From assembly GCA_963771075.1 (NCBI GenBank), contig CAVYSE010000001.1, forward strand, positions 32,001 to 96,000: 64,000 nt of DNA, written 5' to 3'. This DNA is from a candidate division FCPU426 bacterium. Lineage in GTDB: Bacteria; Oederibacteriota; Muellerivitia; Muellerivitales; Muellerivitaceae. The position numbers were made by a program, and so were the translations under genes. Positions within the stretch are counted from its first letter, which is position 1. Every line of letters starts with the position of its first letter. Positions 7,479-35,702 of this stretch are shown here, piece by piece. Under the pieces are notes generated by a model. That model was not told the DNA's origin. It searched no databases and was given only the letters and a program-made list of their open reading frames with translations.

Positions 7479-7561
7479 ACCGGGTGCGTTTAGAAAGTTT
7501 CCAAAATCCCGGTTGCGCGGCAGGTAAATTGAAACTGGTATAATCCTGGAATGGAAAAAAA

Positions 7562-8576
7562 GGGTCAGGCCAACACATAACACTTAAAAAACAATTCGGT
7601 ATTTGATAAGATTCTGCCATGCCCCGAGCAAAAAGAATCCATTACGAAGGCGCGGTTTATCACGTCACTTCCCGGGGGAATGAACGAAGAAAGATCGTGT
7701 TTGACGATTCAGACCGTGGTTTATTCCTAAAAATACTCGCCGAAGTCGTGGAAGAACATCACCTGCATTGTCATGCTTGGGTATTGATGGACAATCACTA
7801 TCATTTGTTGTTTGAAACCCCGGCCGCCAATCTTTCCACCGCCATGAAGCATTTAAATGGGCTTTATACCCAAAGGTTCAATCGAAAAAGACACCGAGTA
7901 GGACATTTGTTCCAAGGCCGGTTTAAGGCCATCCACGTCGACAAGGAAAGTTATTAGAAGGAATTGTGTAGGTATGCGGTCTTAAACCCGGTAAGGGCCA
8001 AAATGGCGAAGCATCCGAAAGAATGGAAATGGAGCCGTTATCGGCCTACGGCAGGTATTGAGAAGGCCCCGTCTTGGTTGGAAACGAAGTGGTTATTAGG
8101 ATTATTCGATAAAAGGTTAGATACGGCCCAAAAGGCCTATCGAGAGTTCGTGGACGATGGGCTCCAAGGGGGAACCAGCCCTTGGGATGAGTTGAGGCAT
8201 CAGGTTTATTTGGGGAAAGATGAATTTTTGGAAAAGATGAAGGGCCTGATATCGAAAAAAGAAAACATGGATATGCCGAAATACCAAAAGAAAATCATGC
8301 ATCCACCGGTGGAGAAGGTATTGGCGAAGGTGGCGGAAGTTTATGGCGTGAAGAAGGAAGCAATCATAAAAAGCCGAAAGAAGGGAAATGAAGTGAGGGA
8401 TGTAGCGATCTATTTGCTGAAGAAAACGGCTGGAATAAGCTCAAAAGAAACGGCGAAGGTGCTGGGGGTGAGTTCGTCGGCGATTGGGAACCGATGGGCG
8501 GTGATAAAAATGCGCATGGAGAAAGACCGGCAATTGGAGAAAATGATCCGTAAGTGTCAAGTGTTGGCCTGACCCC
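7562..8576 (+). mobile_element. Y1/RAYT-like transposase element with ~24-bp terminal inverted repeats
   Basis: Left GGGTCAGGCCAACACATAACACTT (7562-7585) and right AAGTGTCAAGTGTTGGCCTGACCCC (8552-8576) are near reverse complements. Confidence 0.8.
7619..8572 (+). pseudogene. REP-associated tyrosine (Y1 HUH) transposase with C-terminal DnaA_C-like HTH; in-frame TAG at 7955-7957
   Basis: YHVTSRGN, MDNHYHL (HUH), GHLFQGRF, RYAVLNPVRA (catalytic Tyr) and WKWS. The two ORFs share one frame. Confidence 0.88.
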
Positions 8577-8746
8577 ATTTTTTTTGTTTTTTTGCGAAAA
8601 CATCCAACCTCGAATACCATCGTCATTCTTTAGGATTAAATTCTCCCGGATGTTCTCCCAATGAAACCCCCGCCCGTTTTTTGAGTGCGGGCGCTACAAA
8701 ATGGTTCTTGCCACCCATTCAATGGATGGCGCCGATTTCTACTAAA

Positions 8747-8783
8747 GTTGCACACCATCCTTTTTGCGAGGGCCATGTGCAGG
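8747..8783. repeat. 37-bp CRISPR-type repeat, cas-distal copy
   Basis: Exact match to 12261-12297. Confidence 0.95.
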
Positions 8784-10502
8784 CTTAAATGGCGTCCCCA
8801 GGTTTTTGCCGACATGGTCGGGCAAGAACACATTACCCGCTCTTTGCAGAACGCCATGAAGGCCGAGCGCGTGGCCCATGCTTACATCTTTGCCGGACCC
8901 CGTGGCGTGGGTAAGACCACTACCGCCCGCATCTTTGCCAAAGCCCTCAACTGCCGCGACCTGAAGAACGGTGAACCCTGCAACGTTTGCGACCTTTGCC
9001 AGGATGTGAACCAAGGGTCTTCGATGGACGTGATCGAGATCGATGCTGCTTCTTTCAACGGTGTGGACGATATCCGCAGCCTGCAAGAAACCGTCGCAAC
9101 CGCCCCCTCCAAGGCTAAATATAAGGTCTATATCTTTGACGAAGCACACCGGATCACCAAACAAGCCTTTGACGCCTTCTTGAAGACCCTGGAAGAGCCG
9201 CCCGCGCATGTCATCTTCATTTTGGCTTCGACTGAAATCCACCAGTTCCCCGCCACCGTCCAGTCCCGCTGCCAACGCTTCGAGTTCCGCGCGATGGGCA
9301 TGGATACCCTGGTCAAGCAATTGCGACGCATTACCGACGCTGAAGAGATCAAGATCGACGACAAGGGCCTCTATCAGATCGCTCGGGCCGCCCGCGGTTC
9401 CATGCGCGACAGCCAAAGGACCTTGGACCAGGTCGTGGCCTTCTCAGGAAAAGAAGTCAAAGCCGAAGATATCGCTATTGCCCTCGGCACCATTGAAGAA
9501 GAGGTTTATCTCAAGCTGGTCGAAGCCGCGGTGAACCAAGACGCTCCCTCCGCTTTGACCGTGACCAAGGCCGTCATCGATGGCGGCAAGGACCTGGAAC
9601 ATTTCTACGCCGGTTTGCTCGAAACCTTCCGCCACTTAGCGGTGGCCAAGGCTTATCCCGCTTCCGCTGCTCAATTCATTTCCCTGTCCGGCGAAGAAGT
9701 CGAAAAACTCGTGAAGTTCTCTTCCCAAATGGACGAGACCCAGATCCTCTCCTCCTTGCGTCTTCTCATTGAGCAAGAATGGGCCCTGCGCCATTCGAAC
9801 AACCCGCAGATCGTTCTAGAAACCGTCGTTTTGGAATTGTCCCATTTAAAACAGCTCACTTCGGTGAATGCTTTGTTGAAGCAGACCGAAGGCGGCGCGG
9901 CGCCGGTCTTGAACAACCCTAAACCCGCCATAGTTGCGCCCCGGCCAGCCGCTCCCATTGCCGCTCCTGCCTCGACCCCGACCTATTCTGCACCCGCCGC
10001 GCCTAAGGCTGCGGTTGTCATGGAAGGTGAGCCCGTATTAGCTGTTGATGAAATAGAAGAACCGATCGAGGCTGAAAGCAGCCCGGAGATGGCCAAGCTG
10101 AAATCCCAATGGCAAGAATTGTTGGAAAAGGTCGGCGCCAAGAACGCCACGATCAAAGCTGTCTTGAACGACACTCATCCGAAAAGCATCAAAGACGGCG
10201 TCTTAACCTTGTCCTGTAAAGGTCCCTTTCACTTCGACAAGCTGTCCGTTGCCGAGAACAGGGCTATTGTTGAAGGCATCATTTAAGAATTGCTGGGGTT
10301 GAAGCTCACCATAGTGCCCTTGGCGCCGCAAACCACTAAACCCGCCGCCGGGGATAAACCCACCATGCGGTCCCCCAAGTCGATGTCCACCGCCAAGGTG
10401 GATGTGAAAGAGATCGAGAAGGACGAGCCCGTTGTGGCCGCCGCCATGAAACTTTTTGGCGCCAAGGTCGTCGAGGTCAAACGCAACAACCCTTCAAAGT
10501 AA
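8784..10502 (+). pseudogene. dnaX: DNA polymerase III gamma/tau, missing its first few codons, with an in-frame TAA at 10284-10286
   Basis: KWRPQ.F...VGQEH, GPRGVGKTT, zinc-binding Cys cluster, EIDAAS, DEAH, KTLEEPP and SRCQ. The frame continues after TAA to ...KLFGAKVVEV. Confidence 0.9.
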
Positions 10503-10511
10503 AAAGCCGTT

Positions 10512-12218
10512 TCAAGATCCATTTTGCGAGTGAATCGAAAAACCGCTGAAGGCTCCGCATTTAAAGACCAATCGCGCGTAGATCTTCTTGTGAAAATTCT
10601 CCAGAACATACTGGTAGTAACGCAACCCCTCCCCGGTCGAGCAAATCACCAATACCCGCGGATTGTCCACTGCGTCCCGAAGAGGTTCTTTCACTCCAAA
10701 ACTTTCCAAACCATTCAAACTGGCCGGACTGGTCTGTGAAAAAGAAGATATCCAAAGATGAAAGGGCCGCAGACACTCGAGGTCATCGAAAGCACCAAAG
10801 CCTTCCAATGGGAACTGCCAGATCACATAAAGCCGATCAGATCGAGGCTGAGCGTCAATGAGATAGTCATGAAGGGTTTGTTGAGCATCCTGCCGCTGTC
10901 GGGCTTGTTGGTAATAACCTTTTAAATTCGGGAAACAAAGGATCAAAGCCGCTGCCAATACCGCGCCTTTTCCCCAAGAGACCAGATCTCTCCCCGTTTT
11001 AAAAGACTCTCCTTCGACGAGAGCCCAGCTCAATGAAAAGGCCAGCACCGGTAAAGTGACCCGGTCCGGCGCCCGCAAAAGATAGATCAGTCCCACGAAC
11101 AGAAGGAGTGTCCACAAGAACTGAGCAAGAAGGAATTTTCTCGCGGACGAAGAACAAAAAAGACCCAATATCAGGAGCGCCAAGATCATCCGCAGGTCCC
11201 AATCAGATAGCACCAATTCTTCTAAGCTGTGGAACGAAGCGGTCTTCCCTTCGGAACTCCATCGGGGAAAAGAAGCCCCGATCTTGCGAAAAGCTTCTAA
11301 GTTGAACTTTGCCGGGTCGGTATAATACCAATTCTTAAAAAGCCAAAGGTCGTTCTCAGTCCACCCCGCCGCGTCAAAGACCGGTTTGGTTTGGGCCGTA
11401 TAAAAAGGAACATGGTAGTCCTGAAGTTCTACCCGAGCCTGGTCAAAGTCGCGGTATTGCCGCCAAGCGGGATCGTTCTGGAACCAAAAGAAATGGAACA
11501 GTCCTAAGACCAATAACCCCGCTCCTATCAGGATAGGGAAGCCTTTTTTCTTAGCAATGAACTCCCGCCACTGAGGGTCTGAGAGACAAGAGATCCAAAG
11601 AGGAAGCGCGAGCACGAATGCCAGTGCTAATGAATCCATTCGGATCAAAGCGGAGAGCCATAAGAGGACCGTCCCAGTGACGAGTGATCCATTCGAAGGT
11701 TTTTCTTGGCCATCCCGGCCGGACAACAGGAAAATAAAAAGTCCCGCTTCGGCGGCCAATAGGGCCGTGATGGTGAACTGAAGAAAAACAAAAAAGAGGA
11801 AATAAACGCAGACCCACGCGATGGTGAAAAGGAGAACTCGTCCCCACACCAAAGCCTTTCGCAGTGAAAGCCAAAGAACGGCCCACAAAGCGCCGAACTG
11901 GGTCAGGCAGAGGAACCAGCCGTACCAAGGAAAGGTCTGCCGCCAGCGATAAAGCTCCCGCAAAAAGTAGCCCAAAAGAACGTTGGAGTAACCGATAAAA
12001 GGTGAAGCCTGGCCCGAAGCATTGATGCCTTTGACCGCCAGGACCTTGAAAATGTCATCGTTGACCAGGAAGAATGGCTTGATAAAAAACAATTGGATGC
12101 TGAAGAGGATTAGCGTTATTGTGAACGACGCCAACGCGGGGTTGTCGCCGAAAACCCGCGAAGGTCGGTTCTCGGCCTTTGCGGCAAGAGGATGTTTGGG
12201 TTGAGAAAGACGGGGCAT
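10512..12218 (-). CDS. Multi-pass membrane protein of unknown function (possibly GT-C-like)
   Basis: About 10 TM segments and an NDD motif after TM1. ATG at 12218 follows a TGATAAAAT extended -10-like site. The frame stays open to 12323 through the repeat. Confidence 0.75.
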   Translation of the reverse strand: MPRLSQPKHPLAAKAENRPSRVFGDNPALASFTITLILFSIQLFFIKPFFLVNDDIFKVLAVKGINASGQASPFIGYSNVLLGYFLRELYRWRQTFPWYGWFLCLTQFGALWAVLWLSLRKALVWGRVLLFTIAWVCVYFLFFVFLQFTITALLAAEAGLFIFLLSGRDGQEKPSNGSLVTGTVLLWLSALIRMDSLALAFVLALPLWISCLSDPQWREFIAKKKGFPILIGAGLLVLGLFHFFWFQNDPAWRQYRDFDQARVELQDYHVPFYTAQTKPVFDAAGWTENDLWLFKNWYYTDPAKFNLEAFRKIGASFPRWSSEGKTASFHSLEELVLSDWDLRMILALLILGLFCSSSARKFLLAQFLWTLLLFVGLIYLLRAPDRVTLPVLAFSLSWALVEGESFKTGRDLVSWGKGAVLAAALILCFPNLKGYYQQARQRQDAQQTLHDYLIDAQPRSDRLYVIWQFPLEGFGAFDDLECLRPFHLWISSFSQTSPASLNGLESFGVKEPLRDAVDNPRVLVICSTGEGLRYYQYVLENFHKKIYARLVFKCGAFSGFSIHSQNGS

Positions 12219-12260
12219 ACCTGGGATTTTATCAAACCCCTCTTCCAGCCTTGCGGTTAT

Positions 12261-12297
12261 GTTGCACACCATCCTTTTTGCGAGGGCCATGTGCAGG
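12261..12297. repeat. 37-bp CRISPR-type repeat, cas2-proximal copy
   Basis: Exact match to 8747-8783. Confidence 0.95.
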
Positions 12298-12319
12298 AGC
12301 CTGTAATTATTGGATTTTT

Positions 12320-12655
12320 TCAATGTTCAGCCGAATTCGGCGTGATTTGGATAAGTTCAAATGCAGATTCAATGTCAACATCATCTTTCATAGAACTTAG
12401 CGTACCACTGAAAACCGAATCCTCAAAGCACGACCGGCAGAGCGTACTGACAAAAAACTTCTCGGTCTTCTTTGCGAATGTCCCCTTGAATTGTTTCTCG
12501 AGTTTATCCCGTTCTTTTGAATACAATTTCCCGATATACATATTCCGTAAAACCGGCTTGAGACCATAATTCTTGCACCACTGAACCGCCTTGTCCCGAT
12601 GCCGCCAGTTGCGCGTTTCCCACGATACTAGGGTAATGGCATTGAAATTGTTCAT
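12320..12655 (-). CDS. cas2: Divergent Cas2-like protein
   Basis: Overlaps the cas1 stop (ATGA). The LVSWE...R.K....CKNYGL..V....Y.G.L...E...L and LCxxC pattern follows the Cas2 layout. Confidence 0.75.
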   Translation of the reverse strand: MNNFNAITLVSWETRNWRHRDKAVQWCKNYGLKPVLRNMYIGKLYSKERDKLEKQFKGTFAKKTEKFFVSTLCRSCFEDSVFSGTLSSMKDDVDIESAFELIQITPNSAEH

Positions 12656-13662
12656 GATATCGAAAAAAGTTTTTCCGCTCGAAATGGATTGTACTTGCCT
12701 TCCTTTTCAACAAAGTGGCGAGCCAACGCCCTAATCTGGTTATCGATGATCTGCTTAAGAGTATATTGCTTGCCCCGCCATGCCGTCATTTCATTCAACC
12801 GCTTCATGATGGCACCTACCACGACGCTTTTTCCTTCAGGTGATAACAGATATTTACCAACCGCGATTTTTTCAAAATATTTCCGTTGGTTCAGTTTCTT
12901 TTCTATGAAAAGCGGGAAAAGCACCGAGTCGACGATTGGTACGCGGAATTCTTCGACAAGATCGAGCACGAGGGCAGGCTTACCATAGCGTTCACTGTGG
13001 TAGAGGCCGAGATATGGATCAAGACCGACGTAAAGACATGCCCGTTCGACTTCATTGTAAAGGATGCCGTAGCCGTAATTCAGTACGCTGTTAAACTGGT
13101 CTCTGCCTTGTGGTTTACGGCCCGGGAATCTATGGAATTTCTTTAGCCCGCTGAAATATTTGTCAGCGATGTATCCCTCGGTACCAAGGAGTTGCTCCTT
13201 GCCCTTCTCTGAACACGGAACATTGTCCAAGACATCAAAAAGTGTCTGTGCTTGTAAGAGCTCCGTCCCCACATCTTTTTTGTATCGATACGCGAGATAT
13301 CGGAGTAGATCGAGCTGATTAGCGCATTTGCCTCGCACTAATTCTTTCGCGATATTGAACGATCGCTCAAGCGAAGTTGATGCTTCCAGTTGGGCTTTAC
13401 GAAGACTCGCCAGGCCTTTTGGTTCGCTTGAAAATACTCTTCCGATGGGTTTGCCAAATGAACCGAGATAGACGATATCAACATCGTGCTCAATCGCGAG
13501 CTGAACCGCATGAGTCGTGAGCGAGGCCGGCCGAAGTATAACTATTTTCTCCAGTCTATGGATCGGGTATTCTTTTTTCTCTTTAACTTTCGGAAAAGAA
13601 AGGACGATGCGCTCCCCAATTGTGCCGATCTTGGTACCGTAAGTATCAATAAGCAAGTCCAT
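12652..13662 (-). CDS. cas1: CRISPR-associated integrase Cas1 (336 aa from MDLLID)
   Basis: LLGTEG (catalytic E), NSVLNYGYGILY, GLDPYLGLYH (catalytic H) and LVLDLVEEFR (catalytic acidic residues). Confidence 0.95.
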   Translation of the reverse strand: MDLLIDTYGTKIGTIGERIVLSFPKVKEKKEYPIHRLEKIVILRPASLTTHAVQLAIEHDVDIVYLGSFGKPIGRVFSSEPKGLASLRKAQLEASTSLERSFNIAKELVRGKCANQLDLLRYLAYRYKKDVGTELLQAQTLFDVLDNVPCSEKGKEQLLGTEGYIADKYFSGLKKFHRFPGRKPQGRDQFNSVLNYGYGILYNEVERACLYVGLDPYLGLYHSERYGKPALVLDLVEEFRVPIVDSVLFPLFIEKKLNQRKYFEKIAVGKYLLSPEGKSVVVGAIMKRLNEMTAWRGKQYTLKQIIDNQIRALARHFVEKEGKYNPFRAEKLFSIS

Positions 13663-13663
13663 G

Positions 13664-13675
13664 TGGCCTGTCCCC
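13664..13675 (+). repeat. Copy of the transposase end motif at the cas1 start
   Basis: TGGCCTGTCCCC versus TGGCCTGACCCC at 8565-8576 (11/12 identical). Confidence 0.45.
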
Positions 13676-13975
13676 CAAATTTCGTAAACCATCCTTGTAT
13701 AATTACGTACAATATTTAATAAACCAGCATCTGAAAATATAATTCCTCCAGATATTCTTGATTCGAAACAAAAGCAAAATGATTTGAGCGGAAAAAACAA
13801 ATTTGAAGAAAACCCTACCTTCTTGGCTGTTCCTGGCTGGTAGCTTTGCTTGAAAATGCCCCCAATCTGTTGTATTTTAGCTCCCCTTTCTTTACCTTTA
13901 GCGTGTGGGCCCAAATGTGGGCCTTTTTTTTACCCATGAATAGGAAAACCTGATTCCCGTGTGTGGAGTGAAGAG

Positions 13976-16900
13976 ATGAATAACTCGCCGATAACGCCCA
14001 ACCCCAACGAAAACCTACTCAGCCCCTTTGATATGGGGAAAGATTCCTGCGGCGTGGGTTTCGTGGCGGATATGAAGAACCGCAAAAGCCATGAGATCGT
14101 CCAGCAGGGCGTCGAGATTCTCCTGAACCTTTCCCACCGGGGCGCGTGCGGGTGCGAAACCAATACCGGCGACGGGGCCGGAATCCTGATCCAAATTCCC
14201 GACAAGTTCTTGCGCAAATTCGCCAAAAATTCCGGTTTTGAATTGCCTGTGGCGGGGGATTATGGCGTCGGGGTGGTCTTTTTGCCCAAACGGCCCGACC
14301 ACATTCAATATTGCGAGGAAGTCATTTCGCGCGTGGTGAAAGAAGAAGGCCAAACCATCCTGGGTTGGCGCTTGGTACCCACCGACAATTCCGAAGTGGG
14401 GCCCACGGCCAGGGTCTCCGAGCCCGTCATGAAGCAGGTTTTCATCGGCAAGGGCAAAGACATCAAGAACCAGGACGCTTTCGAGCGCAAACTGTACCTT
14501 ATAAGGAAGCGCATCGAGCATACGGTGGCCGCTTCCATCCTCACCGAAAAGAACCTTTTCTACTTCGCCAGCTTCTCCTGCCGCACCCTCGTTTATAAGG
14601 GCATGCTTACGCCCGGCCAGGTTTCGCCCTATTTCCCCGATTTGAGGGACAAGGACGTCGAATCCGCCTTGGCGCTGGTGCACAGCCGTTTCTCGACCAA
14701 CACCTTCCCCTCGTGGGACCTGGCGCACCCTTTCCGCTATATCGCCCACAACGGCGAAATCAACACCCTGCGGGGCAACATCAACTGGATGCACGCCCGA
14801 GAAGCCCTCTTCGCCAGCGATTACTACACCCCCGACGAAATGAAGAAGCTTTTGCCCATCATTCGGGAAGGGCAATCCGACTCGGCCACCTTCGACAACG
14901 CCCTGGAAATACTGGTGATGGCCGGGCGGCCCCTGCCGCACGCCATGATGATGCTGATTCCCGAGGCCTGGAGCGGTCACGCCACCATGCCCCAATATAA
15001 GAAGGATTTTTACCGCTACCATTCCTGCCTGATGGAACCCTGGGACGGCCCGGCCTCCATCGCCTTCACCGACGGCCGTGTCATTGGCGCGGTGTTGGAC
15101 CGGAACGGTCTCAGACCCTCCCGTTATTACGTGACCAAGGACGACCTGGTCATCATGGCGAGCGAAGTGGGCGTGCTGGAAGTGGAACCTTCGCGCGTGG
15201 CCAAGAAGGGAAGGCTGGAACCCGGAAAGATGTTCCTGATCGACCTGGCGGAAGGCCGGATCATCGACGATTCGGAACTGAAAGAGAAGATTTCCAAGGC
15301 CCACTCCTACGGCGAGTGGCTGCAGGAAAACCTGGTGACCCTGGAGACGCCTGCCCGACGCCCCCCACGTGCCCGAACCGGACCACGACACGGTCTTGAA
15401 GCGCCAAAAGGCCTTCGGTTACACGCACGAGGAGATCAAGATTTTGATGACCCCCATGACGGTTAATGGGGAAGAGCCGGTCGGCGCCATGGGCGACGAC
15501 ACCCCCTTGGCCGTGCTTTCCGACCAGCCGCAAAGCCTTTTCAACTACTTTAAACAGCTCTTCGCCCAGGTCACCAACCCGCCCCTGGACGCTATACGCG
15601 AGGAACTGGTGACTTCGGTGGTCACCACCGTGGGCCCCGAGGGGAACCTGTTGAAACCCTCGCCAGAGAGCTGCCGCCAGATCGAGCTGAAATGCGCGGT
15701 GTTGGACAACGACGAACTGGCCAAATTCACCCACATCAACCACAAGGGGTTCAAATCCGTCTCCATCCCCATCCTCTATAAGGTCTCGGAAGGGGAAGCG
15801 GCCCTGGCGATGTCCATGGAAGACCTGCAAAAGAAAGCCAGCCAAGCCGTGAAGGACGGCTTCCAAATCATCATCCTTTCCGACCGGGGCATGGACCACG
15901 ACCTGGCCCCCATCCCCAGCCTTTTGGCCATTGCCGGGGTGCACCACCACCTGATTCGCAACGGCGAGCGCACCAAGGTGGGCTTGATCATCGAAACGGG
16001 CGAGCCCCGCGAAGTGCACCATTTCGGCCTGCTGTTGGGCTACGGCGCCAACGCCATCAACCCCTACCTGGCCTTCGAGACCCTGGATGACATGATCCGC
16101 CGCAAGATCCTGCCCTCGGACCTCGACCACAAGATGGCCGTGAAGAAATACATCAAGGCCTGCAACAAGGGCATCGTGAAGATCATGTCCAAGATGGGCA
16201 TCTCGACCATCCAGAGCTACCGGGGCGCCCAGATTTTCGAGGCCATCGGCCTGAACAAGGAATTCGTCGACAAGTATTTCACCTGGACCGCCACCCGCAT
16301 CGGCGGCATCGGATTGAAGGAACTGGCGCAGGAACTGGAAAAACGCCACCGCGGCGCCTTCCCCGAGAGGCCCGACCGGGAACTGGATTTGGACTGGGGC
16401 GGCCGCTACCAATGGCGCCGCGACGGGGAAAAGCATCTTTTCAACCCCGAGACCATCCACAAACTGCAAACCTCGGCCAAGACCGGCTCTTACAAGGTCT
16501 ATAAGGAATACGCCCAGGCCGTTAACGACCAGTCGAAGGCCCTCTGCACCTTCCGGGGTCTGTTCGGCTTCAAGAAGGGCAACCCCATCCCCCTGGACCA
16601 GGTGGAACCCGCTAGCGAAATCGTGAAGCGTTTCGCCACCGGGGCCATGAGCTACGGCTCCATCAGCCAGGAAGCCCACCAGACGCTGGCCATCGCCATG
16701 AACCGCCTCGGCGGCAAGTCGAACACCGGCGAGGGCGGCGAGGACGAGGCCCGTTATATCCCGGAACCTAACGGAGACTCGCGCAATTCGGCCATCAAGC
16801 AGGTGGCCTCGGGCCGGTTCGGGGTGACCAGCAATTACCTGGTCAACGCCAGGGAACTGCAGATCAAGATGGCGCAAGGCGCCAAGCCCGGCGAGGGCGG

Positions 16901-18525
16901 GCAGTTGCCCGGCAAGAAGGTTTACCCCTGGATCGCCAAGACCCGTTTTTCGACCCCCTTCGTCCAGCTCATCTCGCCGCCGCCGCACCATGACATCTAT
17001 TCCATCGAGGACCTGGCCCAGCTCATCCACGACCTGAAGAACGCCAACAAGAACGCCCGCATTTCCGTGAAGCTGGTGGCGGAAGTGGGGGTGGGCACGG
17101 TCGCCGCCGGGGTCTCGAAGGCCCACGCGGACCATGTGCTGATCTCCGGCTTTGACGGCGGCACGGGCGCTTCTCCCCTGACTTCCATCAAGCACGCGGG
17201 CATCCCCTGGGAACTGGGGCTGGCCGAGACGCACCAGATTTTGGTCAAGAACCGCCTGCGGGACCGCATCGTGGTGATGACCGACGGACAGTTGAAGACC
17301 GGCCGGGACGTGGCCGTGGCCTGCCTTTTGGGCGCCGAGGAATTCGGTTTCGCCACCGCCGCTTTGGTGGCCGAGGGATGCATCATGATGCGCGTTTGCA
17401 ACCTGGATACCTGCCCCGTCGGGGTCGCCACCCAAAACCCGGAACTGCGCAAGAAGTTCACGGGCAAGCCCGAATACGTGGTGAATTTCATGATGTTCGT
17501 GGCCGAGGAGATGCGCGAGATCATGGCGCAACTGGGTTACAAGACCGTCAACGAGATGGTGGGCCATTCGGATATGCTGGAAACCAACCACGCCATCGCC
17601 CACTGGAAGTCCAAGGGGCTCGACTTCTCCGCCATTTTCCACCGCCCCGCCGAATCGAACCTGGGGCCGGTCTATTGCGTGAACAAGCAGGACCACGGCC
17701 TGGACAAGGCGCTGGATAACGAGGTCTTGATCGAAAAGTGCCGCCCGGCCCTGGACGACAAGAAGCCCGTGAAGTTCGAGACGCCGATTAGAAACATCAA
17801 CCGCACGGTGGGGACCCTGCTGGGCGCCGAGATTTCGCGCAAGTACGGCTCCAAGGGCCTGCCGGACGACACCATCCAGATCACCTTCCACGGCTCGGCG
17901 GGGAACAGCTTTGGGGCCTTCGTGCCCAAGGGGATGACCCTGCGCCTGGAGGGCGACGCCAACGACTACCTGGGCAAGGGATTGTGCGGCGGAAAGATCA
18001 TCGTTTATCCCCCGAAGGACGCCACCTTTACCCCCGAGGAAAACATCCTCGTCGGGCAACGTGCTCCTCTACGGCGCCACCAGCGGGGAAGCCTACCTGC
18101 GCGGCAAGGCCGGGGAACGCTTCTGCGTCCGTAATTCCGGCGTGCACGCGGTGGTGGAGGGCGTGGGCGACCACGGGTGCGAATACATGACCGGCGGCCG
18201 GGTGGTCGTCATCGGGGACACGGGCCGCAATTTCGCGGCAGGCATGAGCGGCGGGATCGCCTACGTGTGGAACAAGACCGGCGATTTCCCGGTGCGCTGC
18301 AACCAGGACATGGTCGATTTGGATCCGTTGGATTCGGAGGACCTGAAGATCGTTTCCGAGATGCTGAGAAAGCACCAGGAATACACCCACAGCCCGGTCG
18401 CGGCCGGATTGCTGAAGGACTGGGAGAAGCATTCGAGGCAGTTCGTGAAGATCTTCCCCAAGGACTACAAGAAGGCCCTGGCGGAACAAAAGAAAGCCGC
18501 CGCCGAAAAAGGCGCGGTGGCGTAA
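13976..18525 (+). CDS. gltB: Glutamate synthase large subunit, split by two apparent single-base insertions (~15350, ~18055)
   Basis: CGVGF N-terminal nucleophile, [31 protein letters not shown] and [11 protein letters not shown], spread over three frames. Confidence 0.95.
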
Positions 18526-18888: not shown

Positions 18889-20334
18889 ATGGCGAAACCC
18901 ACAGGATTCATGGAAGCGGGACGGGAAACCCCGCACAAAAGGCCCGTAACCGAGCGGGTGAAGGATTGGAAAGAATACACCCTTCCCCCCGAACCCTCCC
19001 ACCTGAAGACCCAGGCCGCCCGCTGTATGGACTGCGGCATCCCCTTCTGCCACATGGGCTGCCCCCTGGGCAACATCATCCCCGACTGGAACGACATGGT
19101 CTACCGCGAGCGATGGAAGGAAGCCATCGAGCGCCTGCACGCCACCAACAATTTCCCCGAGTTCACCGGCCGGCTCTGCCCCGCCCCTTGCGAGAATTCC
19201 TGCACCCTGGCCATGGACGTCTACGACCAGCCGGTGACCATCAAGCAGATCGAGGTTTCCATCATCGACCATGCCTGGAACGAGGGCTGGGTTCGCCCCC
19301 TGCCCAGCGTCAAGAAGACCGGGAAAAAGGTCGCCGTGGTGGGGTCGGGCCCCGCGGGGCTGGCCGCCGCCCAGCAGTTGGCCCGGGTGGGCCATTCGGT
19401 GACGGTGTTCGAGCGCGCGGACCGCGTCGGCGGGCTTTTGCGCTATGGCATCCCCGAGTTCAAGATGGAAAAGCGCCACCTGGACCGCCGTTTGGAGCAA
19501 ATGCGGGCGGAAAGCGTGGAATTCAAGGTGAACGCCAACATCGGCCATAACGTGCCTGTGGAGGACTTAAAGAAGAATTTTGACGCCATTGTGTTGGCCG
19601 GGGGCGCCACCCAGCCCCGCAACCTGCCCGTACCGGGTAGGGAATTGAAGGGCGTTTATTTCGCCATGGAATACCTGACCCAGTCCAACAAGGTCCAGCA
19701 AGGCGACAAGGTCGAGGGCCAGATCATCGCGAAGGACAAGCACGTCATCGTCATCGGCGGCGGGGACACGGGAGCTGACTGTATCGGCACCGCCCATCGC
19801 CAGGGCGCCAAGAGCGTGACCTCCCTTGAGGTTTTGCCCAAGCCCCCTGTTTCCCGCGCGGCGAACAACCCCTGGCCCGAATGGGCCCGGATCTTCCGCG
19901 TGGCGGGAGCCCATGAGGAGGGCGGGGAAATCCTCTATAGCGTTTCCACCAAGCAATTCGAGGGCGAGAACGGCGTGGTCAAGAAATTGAAGGGCGTGAA
20001 GGTGGAATGGATACCGCAGCCTTCCGGCCCCCCCAAGATGCAGGAAGTGGCGGGAAGCGAGTTTGAGTTGCCCGCCGACCTGGTGTTTTTGGCCATGGGC
20101 TTTACCGGCCCGGAGAAGAACCCGCTGTTCGAAAAGATGGGCATCGAGTTGGACCCGCGCTCCAATGTGAAGGCCAACGCCAACAAGATGACCAATGTTC
20201 CCGGCATCTTCGTGGCGGGGGACATGACCCGGGGCCAGTCCCTGATCGTTTGGGCCATCGCCGAGGGCCGCGCCGCGGCCAGGGGAGTGGATCTTTATCT
20301 GATGGGTGAAACGACACTGCCCAGCCCTCTTTAA
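18889..20334 (+). CDS. gltD: Glutamate synthase small subunit
   Basis: MAKPTGF, CMDCGIPFCH.GCP, GSGPAG and GGGDTG. Confidence 0.96.
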   Translation: MAKPTGFMEAGRETPHKRPVTERVKDWKEYTLPPEPSHLKTQAARCMDCGIPFCHMGCPLGNIIPDWNDMVYRERWKEAIERLHATNNFPEFTGRLCPAPCENSCTLAMDVYDQPVTIKQIEVSIIDHAWNEGWVRPLPSVKKTGKKVAVVGSGPAGLAAAQQLARVGHSVTVFERADRVGGLLRYGIPEFKMEKRHLDRRLEQMRAESVEFKVNANIGHNVPVEDLKKNFDAIVLAGGATQPRNLPVPGRELKGVYFAMEYLTQSNKVQQGDKVEGQIIAKDKHVIVIGGGDTGADCIGTAHRQGAKSVTSLEVLPKPPVSRAANNPWPEWARIFRVAGAHEEGGEILYSVSTKQFEGENGVVKKLKGVKVEWIPQPSGPPKMQEVAGSEFELPADLVFLAMGFTGPEKNPLFEKMGIELDPRSNVKANANKMTNVPGIFVAGDMTRGQSLIVWAIAEGRAAARGVDLYLMGETTLPSPL

Positions 20335-20981
20335 ATAATTAGATTTAGAGGGAAGGCTGGACATACCCAGTTCTCATATAAATTCACAAATTGAAACTGG
20401 GTGCCCAGCCCTCTTTAATAAATAGATTTAGAGGGAAGGCTGGACATACCCAGTTCTCATATAAATTCACAAATTGAAACTGGGTGCCCAGTCCTCTTTA
20501 ATAAATTGATTTAGAGAGAAGGCTGGACATACACAGTTCTCATATAAATTTTAAGGGTCGTTCCCGAATTTGCAGATAAAGGGTTTTGAAGTGCTTTTTG
20601 TGGTCTGTCATCGAGAGGAGGCGCCCCAATCGGGGCGGTTGCCGACGTCGCGATCTCAGTTCGATGTTCGTCTTGGCCTTTTTAAAGGCTTTTTTAAACT
20701 GGGATTGTCCATGGGCTAAAGCCCATGGAGGGTTGGCCGAATTTAGGCCAACTACCACAAGCCTCTCGTGAACGTCCGCCTAGCCCCATTTTTCTTTAAG
20801 GGTAAATAAGGAAAATGGGATGATCCCGCATCATCTTTTAAAATTTTCAAAAGGAAATGCGGGATATCGGCGGCCACTCGTCGCAATGACAACCAAATAA
20901 AGCAAGATTTAAAACGGACTCTATCTGCAAATTCAGGAAAGGGGCAATTTTAAAATTGAAACCGGGTGCCCAGCCCTCTTT
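20318..20981 (+). repeat. 83-84-bp tandem repeat starting in the gltD 3' end; third unit interrupted by a MITE
   Basis: Units start at 20318, 20402 and 20485; the third resumes at ~20954. Confidence 0.85.
20555..20945. mobile_element. MITE-like element with 18-bp subterminal IRs and 8-bp TSD AATTTTAA
   Basis: TTCCCGAATTTGCAGATA (20561-20578) pairs with TATCTGCAAATTCAGGAA (20922-20939). AATTTTAA at 20547-20554 and 20946-20953. Confidence 0.7.
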
Positions 20982-21023
20982 GATTAGCTCACAGCTAAAA
21001 ACATAGCAGGTTATTTCAATTAA

Positions 21024-25307: not shown

Positions 25308-26048
25308 ATGAAAAATATTTTCTTTCTTATCCCCTTTTTTTTGATCTCCCTTTGGCTGCCCGTCGCCTGCCAGAAGACCTATACCCTTCCCACAGTTCCG
25401 CCCACGCCAGGCCCCACCGCCACCCCCACCTGTAACACGCCCGCCCAAACCCAGCCCTGTTCCGGGACGGGCATTCAATGGGGTTACGGGCAGGTGGTGG
25501 TTCAAGCCAGCCAAGGCGGAACAACGACTTGGTACGCAGAATTGGAAATTGATGTTGATTGCGCGCTTTGCACTAACGCCCAGGTCACCCTGACGAGCCC
25601 GGAGTTGGCCCTGCCCGTACCTGTGCCTTACGCCAACGGTCATGTCCTCATGAACGGGACCCAATATTCCGATTATGGGACCAATAATTTTCCGGGGACC
25701 CTGGCGGCCGGCTCCTACACCCTCACCGCCGTCACGCCCTCCGGGACCACCTCAGCTACCTTGACCCTGCCGCCCCAGCCGGTCATCTCCGCCGACGGTT
25801 CCACCGCCTCCTGGCCCGGTTCAGCCCAATGGGCGCTCGTCGCGGTCGACAACTCCTCCTATTCCCGAACCTTCATTTCCAGCGACTGCTGGTCTGCCAG
25901 CTCGCCCTACTCCATTCCCGCTTCGGCCTATCCATCCTCCGGTACCTATTACGCGGCCGCGGGTTGTGAAAATTGGACGACGGCCATTAACGGGGGTTCC
26001 GGCATTTTCAGCATATCCAACTCATACGAAACGGGCGTAACGAAATAG
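25308..26048 (+). CDS. Lipoprotein, hypothetical
   Basis: Lipobox-like LPVAC, GAGG RBS and Thr/Pro linker. Confidence 0.75.
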   Translation: MKNIFFLIPFFLISLWLPVACQKTYTLPTVPPTPGPTATPTCNTPAQTQPCSGTGIQWGYGQVVVQASQGGTTTWYAELEIDVDCALCTNAQVTLTSPELALPVPVPYANGHVLMNGTQYSDYGTNNFPGTLAAGSYTLTAVTPSGTTSATLTLPPQPVISADGSTASWPGSAQWALVAVDNSSYSRTFISSDCWSASSPYSIPASAYPSSGTYYAAAGCENWTTAINGGSGIFSISNSYETGVTK

Positions 26049-26058
26049 AGGAGTGTCT

Positions 26059-26232
26059 ATGAATTTTGGGCATCTGGATCCAAACCTGGTTTTGCTATTG
26101 ATCATCATTTTCTGGGTTATCTGCGGACGCTTCCTGATGAAATTAGCGATCGAGATCGTCCTGCTTTGGGCCTTGGCCCTGTTCGTTTTCTGGTACGCCG
26201 CGCCTTTCCTTGCCAAGTTTTTCCATCATTGA
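26059..26232 (+). CDS. 57-aa small membrane protein (absent from the ORF track)
   Basis: GAGGAG RBS; MNFGHLDPNLVLLLIIIFWVICG... with two hydrophobic segments. Confidence 0.6.
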   Translation: MNFGHLDPNLVLLLIIIFWVICGRFLMKLAIEIVLLWALALFVFWYAAPFLAKFFHH

Positions 26233-26259
26233 TCCCCTAACCCCAAACGAAACACCCGG

Positions 26260-26577
26260 GTAGTGTCTCAGTTTAAAAGGGCTATTGATTTAATTCGTCA
26301 TTGCGAGGGTCAGCCCCAATCGGGGCGGTTTGTCCTACGATGCGCATTGGGCAACGTAAATCAGGACTATGCCGCTAACCCTTTGTCTTTTTTTTGTAAA
26401 GCGGCATGAACCAGGCATGTAGTAGTTGGCCTGAATTCGGCCAACCATCCTGGGGCTTTAGCCCCAGGACAATCTCGGGTTGTACAACTTGAACCTACGG
26501 CAAAACCTGGGATTCCCACGTCGCAAATCGAGCCTATCGGCTCAGCTCCTCGGAATGACTTCAAACTGAGACACTAA
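26260..26577 (-). mobile_element. MITE copy B, inverted relative to copy A
   Basis: TAGTGTCTCAGTTT / AAACTGAGACACTA ends, with AAACACCCG duplicated on both flanks. Confidence 0.85.
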
Positions 26578-26670
26578 CAAACACCCGCATCAAGGTTGAT
26601 CACCTGCAATAGGGTGTAAAATAGCTGCCATTCCAACACTCGCCGGACTCACCGGCGGGGAGGAGGCCTG

Positions 26671-27717
26671 ATGCCGCTCGACCTGCAGTTGTTCCTCATC
26701 AGCGTGTTTTTCATCTTTTTCCAGGGAGTGCCCCGGATCCTGAAACGCCAAGGTTTGCCCCTCCAACTCAACTTCGTCCAGGTATCAGACGCAAGTTTTA
26801 CCGAGAGACAAAAGAGGCATTTCGGGGAACTGGACGAAAAGATGGCGAAACTGGGCTTCACGCCGGTCCTCAATTACGCGGTCACCAACCTGTCGGGGCC
26901 CAACATCAGCCGGTGCTACCTGAGCAGTCTGGACGCGGCCCGGGTGAACGCGGTCCTTTTGATCGGGAGCCGCACCCAGGTAAACCCCATCCAGGCCCTA
27001 TACCTGGAAATCAGCACCAACTTCAAGGATGGGACCAGCCTGACCACGATGAATTCCGAGACCGCCACATTCTTCGACCTCCTGCCGGGACGCGTCCGCC
27101 AGAAGTTTCCCGCCGTCAAGGACCCGGAGGAATTGAAAAACCTCCATGACTTGAAACTGGGGGAATTCAAGGACAGGGAAAGGCTTTATATCTCCAAAGA
27201 GGATATCTTCCCCCGCCATGAGAAATACCACGCGGAATTCTGCGAGTACCAGGTGAAGCGCGGTCTCCTGCGTCTCCATCCCGGGGAGACTCGTTACCGC
27301 TTGACCCTCAAGGCGACCCTGCGCGCAGTGATGAATTACCTGAACCCCTTCGCTCCGGGCCTCGTTTGGAAGAATCTTTTCTGGGCGATCCTGGGCGGGG
27401 TCTTGATCCCGGTAAGCGGGGTTTATTTCAGCCCCGTGATTATCCCATTCCTTCAACAGGCGATGGGGTTGGAACCGGTGACGCTTTCGTGGATCCTGGA
27501 CCTGGTGCTCTACGCCTTCGGGGGAGCGGTGGTCGGCTATGTCCTCGCCCGTCGGGTTTTTGTTTGGGGGTTCCTCCTGGCTTATTTACCCTCCCGTATT
27601 CTCACCCTCGCGGGTCTTCTCGCTTTCGAACCCCGTTTCATCCCTTTGAGCCTGCTGCTCACCTCGGTGGCCCAGGAGGTTTCGGTATGGAAGCGAAAGC
27701 GGGAAAGGATCATCTAG
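26671..27717 (+). CDS. Hypothetical membrane protein
   Basis: GGAGGAGG RBS; N-terminal TM and several C-terminal TMs. Confidence 0.75.
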   Translation: MPLDLQLFLISVFFIFFQGVPRILKRQGLPLQLNFVQVSDASFTERQKRHFGELDEKMAKLGFTPVLNYAVTNLSGPNISRCYLSSLDAARVNAVLLIGSRTQVNPIQALYLEISTNFKDGTSLTTMNSETATFFDLLPGRVRQKFPAVKDPEELKNLHDLKLGEFKDRERLYISKEDIFPRHEKYHAEFCEYQVKRGLLRLHPGETRYRLTLKATLRAVMNYLNPFAPGLVWKNLFWAILGGVLIPVSGVYFSPVIIPFLQQAMGLEPVTLSWILDLVLYAFGGAVVGYVLARRVFVWGFLLAYLPSRILTLAGLLAFEPRFIPLSLLLTSVAQEVSVWKRKRERII

Positions 27718-27732
27718 CCTAGGTCGGGGAGG

Positions 27733-28590
27733 TTAGGGTGTACTGAAGGTGGTCGTGGAAATGTCGATATTCCAGTTTTCGTTATTGTAGCTGCGCGCGG
27801 TCACCGTCAACCCGCTGGCGGCGGCGGGAAGCACCCCGGCCGTGACGTAGGTCAGCCCCCCGGCGGGCGGCTGCGCGTAAGTGACGGTGGAACTCAAGGG
27901 GTTGCCCTGGTCCCCCCATACCCAGTAATAAGCCGGCACGATCTGGGGAACTTCCCAGGTGCGCGACACGGCGCCGGCCACCGTCCCCGTGGCGGTGAAG
28001 ACCGGGGCGGAGCTGGTGGTGGCGGAAAGGGCCAACCCGTTGGTCGAGGTTGAGGAAGAGAGGGCGTGCACCGTGACCGAGTTGGCGCTGGAGGGAAGGG
28101 TTCCGATGGCGACCACGTAATAGTAGACGTTGAAGTTGGTCATGCCGTTGGACCAGAACATGGTGGACCCGGGAATCTTGGCCCCCGTCGCGAGCAGGGA
28201 ATAGGGCCCGCCGGGACCGGTGGTGCTGTCCCAGACCTGGTAGGCGGTCACCGCGGCGCTGTTGTCCACCAGCCATTCCAGGGTGCCGTTATTCGTGGAA
28301 AGGTCCAGATAACCCAAAACGCCTTGGGGCACCGCGAGAGCCGTGGGGGTTGAGGTCGGAGTCAGCGTGAGAGTCGGTGTAAGCGTGAGGGTTGGGCTGA
28401 GTGTGGGGCTGGGGGTCGGGGATAGGGTGGGTGTACAGGTGTTGCCCGGAAAACCACAGGGCAGGGTGGTGGGAGTGTAAGGTATGGATGAAAGGGGGGC
28501 CAGGGTCGTGTTCTTCTGGCAATCCCACACTATCAGGGGGAAAAAAAGGACCGCGCCGAGGAGCAGAAGCTTTTGAGGATGGGGGGCCAA
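27733..28590 (-). CDS. Thr/Pro-rich lipoprotein with FN3/Ig-like domains
   Basis: Signal ending WDC, TPT linker and YYYVVA strand. Confidence 0.7.
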   Translation of the reverse strand: MAPHPQKLLLLGAVLFFPLIVWDCQKNTTLAPLSSIPYTPTTLPCGFPGNTCTPTLSPTPSPTLSPTLTLTPTLTLTPTSTPTALAVPQGVLGYLDLSTNNGTLEWLVDNSAAVTAYQVWDSTTGPGGPYSLLATGAKIPGSTMFWSNGMTNFNVYYYVVAIGTLPSSANSVTVHALSSSTSTNGLALSATTSSAPVFTATGTVAGAVSRTWEVPQIVPAYYWVWGDQGNPLSSTVTYAQPPAGGLTYVTAGVLPAAASGLTVTARSYNNENWNIDISTTTFSTP

Positions 28591-28733
28591 GGTTTCCCTC
28601 CCGATAAAATAATAACGTCACAAATGATTATACGCTGGTTTTGTTCCGGAGGGGTTCAGGGAGAATGGGGTTTTGCCCCAAGGGAACGGCCCTAAAATAC
28701 CTTTTAACGGCATTCATATATTGACTATCATCA

Positions 28734-29249
28734 GTGAGGTATTCAGCGCCTTCATCCCGTCCGGAAGTGGAGAAGAACCGGTTGAAAAATCGTCCCTGGT
28801 CCCACTCGATCTATCAGGCCCTGGAGGGGGTTCATTGCCCCTTGTGCCAAAGCGGCGAGGTGGCCTTGATCCTCTATGGCCAGCGCAAATCGGACCCGGA
28901 ATTGGATCAATTGATCCTGCAGAAAAAGGTCATCCTCTGGGGTTCCTGTTTCGGAGTGGAGAACCACTTTTGTTTCGGTTGCCACGCTTCCTGGGCGGCG
29001 AAAGAGAAGATCGAATGGCGGCCCGTCGACCCCTTGACCCGGGCCGATGGAAAAGCCCCCTGTCAGACCGAATTTCCCATGGGAGCCCGAATGCCAGCCC
29101 CGACCCTGCCTGCCCAGGTCAAGGATTTCATTTGCTCCCGGTGCCTGGAACGGGCGCCCGTCAAATACATCCGTTGGAACCTTTTCCATGGGGCGATCTG
29201 CCTAAAATGCGTGGGAACCCTTCGCCAGATCAAGAAATACCTGGGCTGA
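28734..29249 (+). CDS. Cys-rich hypothetical protein (several CxxC)
   Basis: CPLC...ILYG...ILWGSC...CFGC pattern, plus CSRC and CLKC. Confidence 0.55.
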   Translation: MRYSAPSSRPEVEKNRLKNRPWSHSIYQALEGVHCPLCQSGEVALILYGQRKSDPELDQLILQKKVILWGSCFGVENHFCFGCHASWAAKEKIEWRPVDPLTRADGKAPCQTEFPMGARMPAPTLPAQVKDFICSRCLERAPVKYIRWNLFHGAICLKCVGTLRQIKKYLG

Positions 29250-29259
29250 GGCAAAAGGG

Positions 29260-29883
29260 TTAATGGGGAAGCTGGGCTTCCGGGTTTGCCCCGGGATCGG
29301 CATCGGGATAGATCTTGACGGAATCCTGGTCCAACACCCCATTCTTGTAATTCGATTCGGATTTCAAACGGCCGTCCTCATAGAAGGTTTGATGCAGGCC
29401 GTGAGGACGATCGTCCTTGTTTCCCCATCTAAATTGGATATGGCCGTCCGGGAAATATTTTTTGGCGATCCCTTGCATGCGACCATTCACCATCGTGTAC
29501 TCATACAAAAGCTTTCCGCTCTTGGAAAAGCCCTGCTTCAAGCCCGTGATCTGCCCGTCCACATAAGGCACCTTGGCTGAGATCCATCCTTCCGGGCTGT
29601 AGACGATCTGGATTCCGTTTCCCTTCCCATAACGGAACCTTAATTTCCATTCGGGTTTCCCGGAGGGAAAATAACAAGTCGCGATCCCGTCGGGGACCCC
29701 GCCCCGATCCACGATCTGGCCTTCCGCGATGAATTGCGTGTCGACCAATCGGTTGTTGACATAAAACTTAGTGATGCCGTTGGCCGATTTGGCGGTAATG
29801 GCCGTTTCCCCGCAGAGGGCCTGGGCAGGGCAAAAGGGAAGGGTGCCCAACAGGATGAAGAGGAAGAATTTATAGGATTTCAC
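29260..29883 (-). CDS. Secreted MORN-variant repeat (YwqK-like) protein
   Basis: Repeated Y.xG......Y.xG...G pattern and signal peptide. Confidence 0.8.
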   Translation of the reverse strand: MKSYKFFLFILLGTLPFCPAQALCGETAITAKSANGITKFYVNNRLVDTQFIAEGQIVDRGGVPDGIATCYFPSGKPEWKLRFRYGKGNGIQIVYSPEGWISAKVPYVDGQITGLKQGFSKSGKLLYEYTMVNGRMQGIAKKYFPDGHIQFRWGNKDDRPHGLHQTFYEDGRLKSESNYKNGVLDQDSVKIYPDADPGANPEAQLPH

Positions 29884-30255
29884 CTTTCGCCCTTTCGAGA
29901 ATCCAAAGAGTTCAGGGATTCTTACCGGATCGATCCCTTTAGTTAGACTGAAAGATGATAGCCCTATCCCTCTTACTCCGGAAAGTGGGCGCGCGAGGGG
30001 AAGGACCGCTCTCTCCCTCCCAAAAAAACAGGGTGTGATATCGGCACCGGTTCAAATCCAAGTTAATAAAATCACCCTATTTGATTTTAACGGGAAATCA
30101 TTACTTTAAAACGGTCTCGAAACCGGATTATAAATGTACCCGTTTGTTGCTATTTTTGCGCTTTTAATGGGAAACTTCATCCGTCCGTAAAATCGTTTTT
30201 CACCTAATGAACAATGCCCATATTAGATCATTATGCCAGCAAGATTTGACGACCA

Positions 30256-35063: not shown

Positions 35064-35330
35064 CCTTACTGAAGTCGGCCTAGGACCAGGCCCTGTCGCG
35101 ACTCGTTTTTTCCTTGTTTATGCAATCCCGCACTTCCGAGTTGTTATTGCCAAGTAATCATCCATCCGCCCCCAATGACCAAACCTATTGGGATCAAAGT
35201 CCTGCCGCCCGCTACGATTCTTAACGGACCCCTCCCCTGAAGGCGGTGAATCCCCGGGTCCCATTCGAGGCCCCACATTCACTAATCCTGGGTAAAATAG
35301 AGCCGGAAGGTCGATGGTTCGGAGGCTGTC

Positions 35331-35702
35331 ATGGAAGACGCAAAAATGTTCATTGAAAAACGGGCCTATCCCCGGACCAAGGCGCAATTCCCCGTGAAGT
35401 ATTGCCTTTTAGAGGACAAACGGGAGATCGAATTGATCCTCGACGATAGCAAAAGGGAAAGGGTCGCCCTGACCCGGGACATCAGCCTGGGCGGGATGCA
35501 GATCATCGCCGAACACCCGATCCGGGTGGGGGAGGTCATGATCTTCGAGATCCCCTTGCCCGGCCTGGTCGAACCCCTCCTGGCCGCCGCAGAGGTGGTC
35601 TGGGTGGATGGGAGCACCGGGGGATTGCATTTTCTCAAGATCAGCGACGAAGACTTCGCGGCCCTGACGGCCTACATTAAAAAGGTCGGCGTGCGGGCTT
35701 GA
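35331..35702 (+). CDS. PilZ-domain protein
   Basis: EKRAYPR (RxxxR) and DISLGG (DxSxxG). Confidence 0.9.
   Translation: MEDAKMFIEKRAYPRTKAQFPVKYCLLEDKREIELILDDSKRERVALTRDISLGGMQIIAEHPIRVGEVMIFEIPLPGLVEPLLAAAEVVWVDGSTGGLHFLKISDEDFAALTAYIKKVGVRA

Follow-up and report, generated by a model that had tools for sequence, protein, structure and literature searches.

The window, that is, the whole stretch of 64,000 nucleotides that was analysed, contains a stand-alone unit composed of cas1, cas2, a leader and a 37-nt repeat. The integrase encoded by this unit probably joins long linear DNA at the leader-proximal repeat without a length ruler, and captures genes by doing so. The unit is a real variant of the CRISPR adaptation module and, apparently, an undescribed one.

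Organization of the module in the window

The features of the module and of the DNA located between its repeats are as follows.

8747–8783, minus strand: second 37-nt repeat, identical to the first, an exact copy 3,514 nt away
8784–12260, no strand: insert between the repeats, 3,477 bp, flush with both repeats and without terminal repeats
8784–10502, plus strand: captured dnaX, starting at native codon 8 (the ATG of relatives lies 6–7 codons upstream)
10512–12218, minus strand: captured whole membrane-protein gene, about 568 aa, no Pfam match, 58% aa identity to the gene beside dnaX in genome G015
12261–12297, minus strand: leader-proximal 37-nt repeat, starting 22 nt after the cas2 stop
12298–12319, minus strand: gap from the cas2 stop to the first repeat, 22 nt, ending in the clade-conserved GGCT
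12320–12655, minus strand: cas2, 111 aa, PF09827 at E 0.006 (under the cut-off), overlapping cas1
12652–13662, minus strand: cas1, 336 aa, PF01867 at E 1e-66
13663–13742, minus strand: upstream module edge; homology with other copies stops at about 13696–13742

As in a CRISPR array, identical direct repeats follow the leader, and the exact recurrence of the 37-nt sequence gave 0 matches in 100 shuffles. Both repeats and the 3,477-bp insert lie outside positions 12320–13662, to which the original prediction was confined. The leader probably reaches into the 3' end of cas2, because satellite copies of it keep that part: four other repeat copies in the host genome follow a stretch of 52–224 nt derived from the leader and the 3' end of cas2, and a further leader copy of satellite type lies at the end of contig C13. 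The terminal TGCAAC of the repeat is common to the 37-nt repeat of a Cas12f2 locus (L037). No stable hairpin was obtained for the repeat (z-scores -0.5 to -1.7 in 4/4 folds), a promoter scan returned 3 sites against 2.8 expected, and to the left of position 8747 there were no further degenerate repeats at up to 13 mismatches and no meaningful partial copies.

As predicted, cas1 is bordered by a divergent gltB, which starts from about 13961; homology to the gltB upstream region of module-free sites begins at about 13844. The gltB sequence is split into three overlapping ORFs (501, 921 and 154 aa; window 13961–18525) and relatives have one open frame over the part compared, the split being probably due to assembly indel errors or to a frameshifted gene. 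Other repeated sequences in the window are an 83-nt tandem repeat after gltD with a dispersed copy (20331–20579 and 20946–20988), a 69-nt repeat in two copies (20696 and 22550), and a multi-copy element (7555–8590) with an IS200-like Y1 transposase and a DnaA-C-like HTH. This element is split by a stop at about 7955 and has copies at about 90% on contigs C4, C5, C14 and C21 of the host genome.

Cas1 and its relatives

In the profile search, Cas1 scored over the cut-off for PF01867 and TIGR00287 and over no subtype cut-off. The catalytic E, H and acidic residue, which had been read as retained from the letters alone, are E162, H222 and E237. They are invariant in 36/36 aligned homologues and line up with the E/H/E of Cas1 in structure 7cr6, which with 4n06 represents the nearest solved Cas1 structures. 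Homologues at 57–82% identity belong mostly to Patescibacteria where named, and in a quick tree with midpoint root the window Cas1 nests among CPR (Patescibacteria) sequences. The Cas1 tree comprised the homologue loci collected here and the host type I-E Cas1, and its repeat-labelled rows form one side of a fully supported branch against the Micrarchaeota rows. The nearest canonical relatives, at 36–38% Cas1 identity, are type V-F2 (Cas12f2) loci of Micrarchaeota (L037) and type III loci (L038). In the following, clade loci are those with Cas1 at least 41% identical (n = 84; L015, L029 and L115 were dropped from the count).

Both genes are more AT-rich than gltB, in agreement with the original prediction: the GC content is 0.463 for cas1 and 0.438 for cas2, as compared with 0.577 for the 5' part of gltB and 0.532 for the genome. 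The horizontal acquisition proposed on this ground is supported by three further observations, namely that Cas1 is nested among Patescibacteria sequences, that it is 97–99% identical in three genera (G001, G004 and G014, 3/24 other genomes of the host family), and that its distribution in this family is patchy. The repeat was found in 6/24 other host-family genomes.

A remodelled Cas2

The profile PF09827 was matched at E up to 1 by 30/36 clade homologues of the 111-aa protein. The structural model of the protein (mean pLDDT 77.6) has the order beta-alpha-beta-beta-alpha-beta, that is, a ferredoxin topology, and its best Foldseek matches are Cas2 structures (2ivy, E 8.5e-5). The best VIA-align match was 1zpw (Z 11.8, rmsd 2.6, 82 aligned), an entry titled hypothetical protein which we take to be Cas2, followed by the Cas2 chains of named Cas1-Cas2 complexes (7mi4_E and 7cr6_E). 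As modelled, the 111-aa protein has the Cas2 ferredoxin-like fold, and the doubt originally raised that such a fold might be lacking was removed by these searches. A modelled complex of 2 Cas1 and 2 Cas2 scored 0.23 against a mark of 0.32.

The N-terminal Y-D-I and the Q-x-S-x-F motifs that mark membership in Cas2 are absent from the window protein. In the alignment to canonical relatives, the YDI position corresponds to W12-E13-T14 and the QxSxF position to L36-R37-N38-M39-Y40, as the original mapping had it. Across the clade, YDI is replaced by a new conserved basic motif, W12-x-T14-R15-N16-x-R18 (W12 in 35/36, T14 in 30/36, R15 in 30/36, N16 in 31/36 and R/K18 in 35/36), and position 13, the canonical Asp, is Glu in the window protein and acidic in only 20/36 clade members. 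Two other features that had been counted as remodelling had to be withdrawn. The first is CRSC: three Cys of the clade Cas2 (27, 73 and 76) are invariant, and the CxxC is, as judged from the aligned sequences, ancestral and outside the remodelling, because canonical relatives keeping YDI and QKS have it too (L035–L038, L146, L153 and L161). The second is the acidic tail, whose acidic stretch is not conserved in the clade; only the F/Y-E-[IL]-[VI] end is. In known complexes, this C-terminal strand of Cas2 docks on Cas1.

Conservation of this strand bears on the alternative that Cas1 has reverted to a casposase-like tetramer joining two ends without a Cas2 bridge, with Cas2 as a regulator or leader-binding accessory. 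The part of the casposase study available to us describes tetramers that integrate two separate ends and exclude Cas2 (PMC6977970), and in its favour are also Cas2 residues 78–98, which are unconserved and of low confidence in the model. However, the strand is kept, cas2 follows cas1 in nearly all clade loci with downstream sequence, and the inserts are without casposon terminal repeats; a reversion of this kind is very unlikely in our judgement.

The captured fragment in the window

The 3,477-bp insert is, on the sequence comparisons, a chromosomal fragment from another genus of the host family. It is colinear, at 72% nt identity, with the chromosome of G015, a genome of another genus of this family, in which the counterpart region contains tRNA genes, a whole dnaX, the same membrane gene and the next genes, and no repeat. 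The assignment is based on a 21-row dnaX DNA tree, in which the insert pairs with G015 with support 100/100, and on the rejection of a tree forcing the insert dnaX into the host genus (p-AU 0.0007). The host's own dnaX, 74% identical in nt to the captured one, lies on contig C11 in a tRNA context. Since the best relative of the insert reaches only 72% nt identity, the actual donor lies outside the sampled genomes. Regarding carriage by phages or plasmids, the best matches reached at most 33% among the matches listed, and all of these (3 phage and 157 plasmid records) stayed below 60%.

The captured dnaX is cut and has an in-frame stop at 10284–10286, before the C-terminal 70 codons, so that no obvious benefit comes from the window insert. 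The repeat contains an ATG in frame with the cut dnaX, but a repeat-supplied start codon as a design was rejected, as only about 6/20 5'-open edge ORFs in the family inserts fit the frame in a hand count, which equals chance.

Contigs of four public sequencing runs are identical or almost identical to parts of the insert, and one contig of run X2 spans the junction, with 10 nt from the end of the repeat followed by the dnaX end of the insert. This argues against an assembly artefact, although some of the runs may be related to the sample from which the genome came. In runs X1, X3 and X5 other sequences come after the repeat, and these may stem from other repeat copies in the genome; the flank at 8560–8739 is covered by none of the contigs. 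Run X2 also has contigs in which this dnaX insert end is present and the repeat contains an IS-like end (window 8774–8779), and in run X1 a similar IS-like end occurs inside cas2, at 12540.

Repeats and other CRISPR genes in the host genome

The host is a soil bacterium whose assembly is 96.7% complete. At up to 8 mismatches the repeat is present 29 times, on 10/28 contigs, and the gaps within its rows measure 94–899 nt on C3, 498–14,100 nt plus one of 45.7 kb on C8, and 67–8,515 nt on C27. A genome-wide family search identified the window Cas1 as the only one of its kind in the assembly. No other cas1 was found besides that of a separate type I-E system, which is present on C3, with its own, different and unrelated repeat (period about 61 nt). 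In this type I-E locus (L211, G000 C3, about 184,000–196,000), two unrelated ORFs lie between cas6e and cas1, a dinD-like gene lies between cas3 and cse1, and an IS30 lies beside the array.

The window module is located at gltB, as in G001. In G002 and G014 gltB comes directly after tgt, as compared with about 21 kb between them in the host. About 15 kb of this interval lie past the last repeat (G000 C1, about 25,500–40,746, left of window position 8746) and contain toxin-antitoxin pairs, low-GC stretches and a probable chloride-channel gene only 73% identical to G001; this stretch may be older captured DNA with its repeats lost.

Lengths, ends and cargo of the inserts

Long inserts, which the original prediction had proposed as a consequence of the altered Cas2, are real at the window locus and across the clade. 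We collected 89 distinct inter-repeat inserts, 46 from the host family and 43 from others, with lengths of 30–14,100 nt and a median of 1,305 nt; three gaps over 16 kb in the window's own genome and two gaps in G004 (24.7 and 26.1 kb) were left out. Only two inserts measure at most 50 nt, four measure 51–100, 31 measure 101–1,000 and 52 measure over 1,000 nt, so the regular spacers of about 25–50 nt that characterize CRISPR are not found. For comparison, the canonical Cas12f2 relative L037 has 37-nt repeats with a period of 73–75 nt. Several of the long inserts hold IS elements, and the upper lengths are upper bounds, because inserts can grow after capture. In locus L190 (G002 C12, 144,389–155,823), eight repeats enclose inserts of 1–3.4 kb and two of CRISPR size (30 and 38 nt).

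The source or a near-donor was identified for only 3/89 inserts, in addition to a nested module copy in L015. Besides the window insert, a 386-nt insert in G041 is an internal piece of ndk of the same genome, end to end, with 3 mismatches, and a 559-nt insert in the window's genome (G000) is an internal piece of a transposase gene found at three other places. No PAM is evident in the flanks of these two traced protospacers (ndk and transposase), and no base was added.

These tracings weigh heavily against a decayed CRISPR locus, in which normal spacers would have been inflated by IS elements or cassettes, or rearranged between repeats, and the module would be a deletion remnant. Such decay would be in line with the two inserts of normal size (30 and 38 nt), with the IS elements in some inserts and with the spread of repeats over 10 contigs of the host genome. 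Nevertheless, 87/89 inserts across many genomes exceed 50 nt, a deep clade has retained both Cas1 and the repeat, and the traced inserts are single end-to-end excerpts with no spacer remnant, which largely refutes decay and leaves it barely credible.

Read from its own 5' end, an insert end rarely has G at position 3 (15 against 39 expected, p 2.6e-6; 8 and 7 of 87 per side) and often has T at position 5 (74 against 48 expected, p 2.7e-5); the bias, obtained in 56 tests, is weak and symmetric at both ends. Neither direct repeats nor terminal inverted repeats were found on the inserts (for the latter at most 8/15 matches, mean 4.0, 87 inserts). Cas1 could also make only a half-site joint, at the leader-repeat junction, and leave it to host repair or illegitimate recombination to join the other end and copy the repeat. 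This idea draws on type V-A, where, according to the part of the report at hand, loss of the Cas2 Asp stalls full-site integration (PMC13034035), and the Asp position is not conserved in the present clade. Yet complete repeats adjoin both insert ends without a gap, in the window as well as in the traced excerpts, and the two ends share a base bias, which would be expected of a single type of active site acting on both; we consider half-site joining unlikely and retain the joining of both ends by the integrase.

The cargo (142 ORFs, with the window insert's own three ORFs dropped) includes metabolic enzymes, methyltransferases, tRNA synthetases, toxin-antitoxin genes, IS elements and many unknowns, and some ORF domains are cut at the insert edges. 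With inserts under 250 or over 4,500 nt dropped from the ORF analyses, a whole ORF of at least 100 codons is present in 49/69 inserts, as compared with 29 in length-matched random host fragments. The inserts contain 15 3'-cut ORFs against 43 in the random fragments, and 15/55 cut ORFs are 3'-cut against 44% expected (p 0.014). The excess of whole ORFs hints at selection after capture, although the control consisted of host DNA, whereas the inserts have a lower GC content (0.44 in the family) and short-gene regions may be their source. Gene orientation is 27:29 in CPR, with no bias, and 36:15 in the host family against a simulated 31.5:25.7.

Absence of effectors and spread of the module

A related 37-nt repeat is located just after cas2 in 66/84 clade loci, 294–521 nt past the end of cas1 and usually preceded by GGCT. 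No repeat was called in the other 18/84, of which 5 end too early and 2 have a divergent repeat. A Verrucomicrobiota module copy (L030/L091, Cas1 68%) has no recognisable repeat in the 10 kb downstream of cas2. Upstream of the clade modules, no Cas protein was found among 95 ORFs from 35 loci (140 aa or longer, no more than 4 kb away, three per locus at most; L107, a duplicate of L106, was dropped). In 3/35 clade loci (L020, L023 and L085), the gene directly upstream of cas1 is divergent and encodes an XerC-like tyrosine recombinase.

At the level of the locus, the description as an effector-less module was borne out, as no effector gene stands beside cas1-cas2. In 20 module-bearing genomes (MAGs of unknown or partial completeness), TnpB/Cas12f-like proteins, RAMP proteins and Cas9 over the cut-off were each found in 0/20; Cas5 was found in 0/16 non-family genomes and in 3/4 host-family genomes of the same kind. 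A marginal match to Cas4, far from the module, was obtained in 1/5 genomes. Neither Cas5, Cas7 or Cas6 linked to the module repeat, as in class 1, nor a Cas12f effector and cas4 in the locus, as in type V-F, were observed. Close homologues in complete CRISPR-Cas loci with normal arrays, which would have made the module a deletion remnant, did not occur in the clade loci and genomes surveyed.

These surveys bear on another possible function, in which the inserts are immune memory for an unrecognised trans-acting effector or for long antisense RNA. The repeat is of CRISPR type, some inserts contain mobile-element DNA (transposases, ArdC and integrases), and the host has a type I-E system, all of which fit immune memory. 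Nonetheless, the known effectors for which models were searched are absent from the 16 non-family genomes, the type I-E repeat is unrelated to the module repeat, and self-chromosomal ndk DNA is stored without apparent harm. Furthermore, PADLOC models were matched by only 6/142 insert ORFs, mostly through generic domains, which is weak evidence against a defence bank. We regard immune memory as highly improbable, and sequence-independent gene capture, with selection then keeping the whole-gene inserts, as the likely role.

Within the host family, the module seems to travel as a gene cassette and also to capture parts of other copies of itself, and the latter would give rise to satellite leader-repeat sites. 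Five loci from three genomes (L004, L005 and L014; G004; G014) have a palindromic cassette site at a constant distance of 1,470 nt ahead of the first repeat, and shortened leader copies lie 70–216 nt after such a site; the window copy of the module has none. In L015, the first base of an insert, directly abutting the repeat, is nt 285 of cas1, and the insert continues through cas2 and the leader to the next repeat, which would explain the origin of the satellite leaders. In G004 (C1, 380,527–431,462), three repeats after cas2 lie 26.1 and 24.7 kb apart, with cassette sites in part; these gaps may be very long inserts or later expansions.

Comparison with known systems

The module resembles a canonical CRISPR adaptation module in its Cas1 triad, its Cas2 fold with CxxC, its 37-nt repeat ending in TGCAAC, the repeat on each side of the insert and the fixed place after cas2. 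It differs in its inserts of 30–14,100 nt instead of about 36 nt, in the lack of a PAM at two protospacers, in the lack of an effector or cas4 beside it, and in the replacement of YDI and QxSxF in Cas2. As in casposons, a Cas1-family enzyme would join two ends of long DNA at a specific site with duplication of the target, according to the portion of the casposase work available (PMC6977970). Unlike in casposons, there are no terminal inverted repeats, the cargo is arbitrary, Cas2 is present, cas1 lies outside the repeat-flanked insert, no polB occurs among the upstream or insert ORFs, and Cas1 nests among CRISPR Cas1 relatives (in the tree of the collected homologue loci and the type I-E Cas1).

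Integrons possess a fixed platform with the tyrosine recombinase IntI and attI/attC sites, and gather foreign genes in a row beside the integrase. The module shares the fixed platform and the row of foreign genes, whereas its enzyme is Cas1, no tyrosine recombinase lies beside the window module, and its inserts are cut mid-gene, occur in both orientations and need no att site. Judged by sequence features, the module would not qualify as a CRISPR array (spacer length), a type V-F system, a casposon or an integron, and it seems to work most like a CRISPR integrase with casposase-like two-end chemistry. No such case is described in the accessible portion of a review of exapted CRISPR systems (PMC8730458), and CPR loci without cas1-cas2 are the subject of another paper, likewise available in part (PMC13059738). 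Our literature search found no description of a long-insert Cas1-Cas2 module; subscription journals and supplements were mostly outside its scope, so a mention in a survey table is possible. Such arrays are likely to escape standard CRISPR finders, in which short spacers are assumed.

Proposed mechanism and meaning

In canonical systems the Cas1-Cas2 complex acts as a spacer-length ruler, and in type V-A the N-terminal Asp of Cas2 is needed for full-site integration and metal binding and is linked to the ruler, as stated in the available part of that report (PMC13034035). The casposase, a Cas1 homologue, integrates two separate DNA ends, and the step from casposase to CRISPR has been proposed, in the part accessible to us, to be a change of architecture in which Cas2 came to favour single short spacers (PMC6977970). 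In the mechanism that we propose, the integrase would attach a long linear fragment by both its ends, one on each side of the leader-proximal 37-nt repeat, and the repeat would be duplicated as in CRISPR spacer acquisition, but with the length ruler lost. The inserts would be made by Cas1-Cas2, each Cas1 dimer gripping one end while the intervening DNA loops out, and the remodelled Cas2 would no longer clamp a duplex of roughly 35 bp. The newest insert would be the leader-proximal one, and the donor may be DNA that was taken up or transduced, or else broken DNA of the cell itself. We found no two strains that differ by a single leader-proximal insert. The clade would thus have gone part way back toward the casposase, keeping target recognition and repeat duplication and losing length control.

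The altered Cas2 may be the cause of the lost length control, as suggested by their co-occurrence in the same clade. The change in Cas2 would not be sufficient alone, because loss of the Asp in type V-A blocks, and does not free, full-site integration in the part of the study available (PMC13034035). More tentatively, and with somewhat less than even confidence, we propose that a CRISPR integrase has been repurposed as a selected gene-capture system, that is, a two-protein site-specific recombinase which needs no donor sequence, keeps an ordered bank of other species' whole genes, and moves from one phylum or genus to another both as a cassette and through capture of its own target site.

That the Cas1-Cas2 architecture fixes the length of spacers is a basic rule of CRISPR adaptation, which a natural clade seems to break here. 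The ruler model and the casposase-to-CRISPR transition become testable with two small proteins and a target of roughly 100 bp, and a site-specific integrase taking kilobase donors with arbitrary ends would serve DNA writing and recording. Homologous recombination is not expected at 72–74% identity, the level at which a fragment of core chromosome passed here from one genus to another, and the module, if the proposed mechanism is true, would provide a homology-independent route of horizontal transfer.
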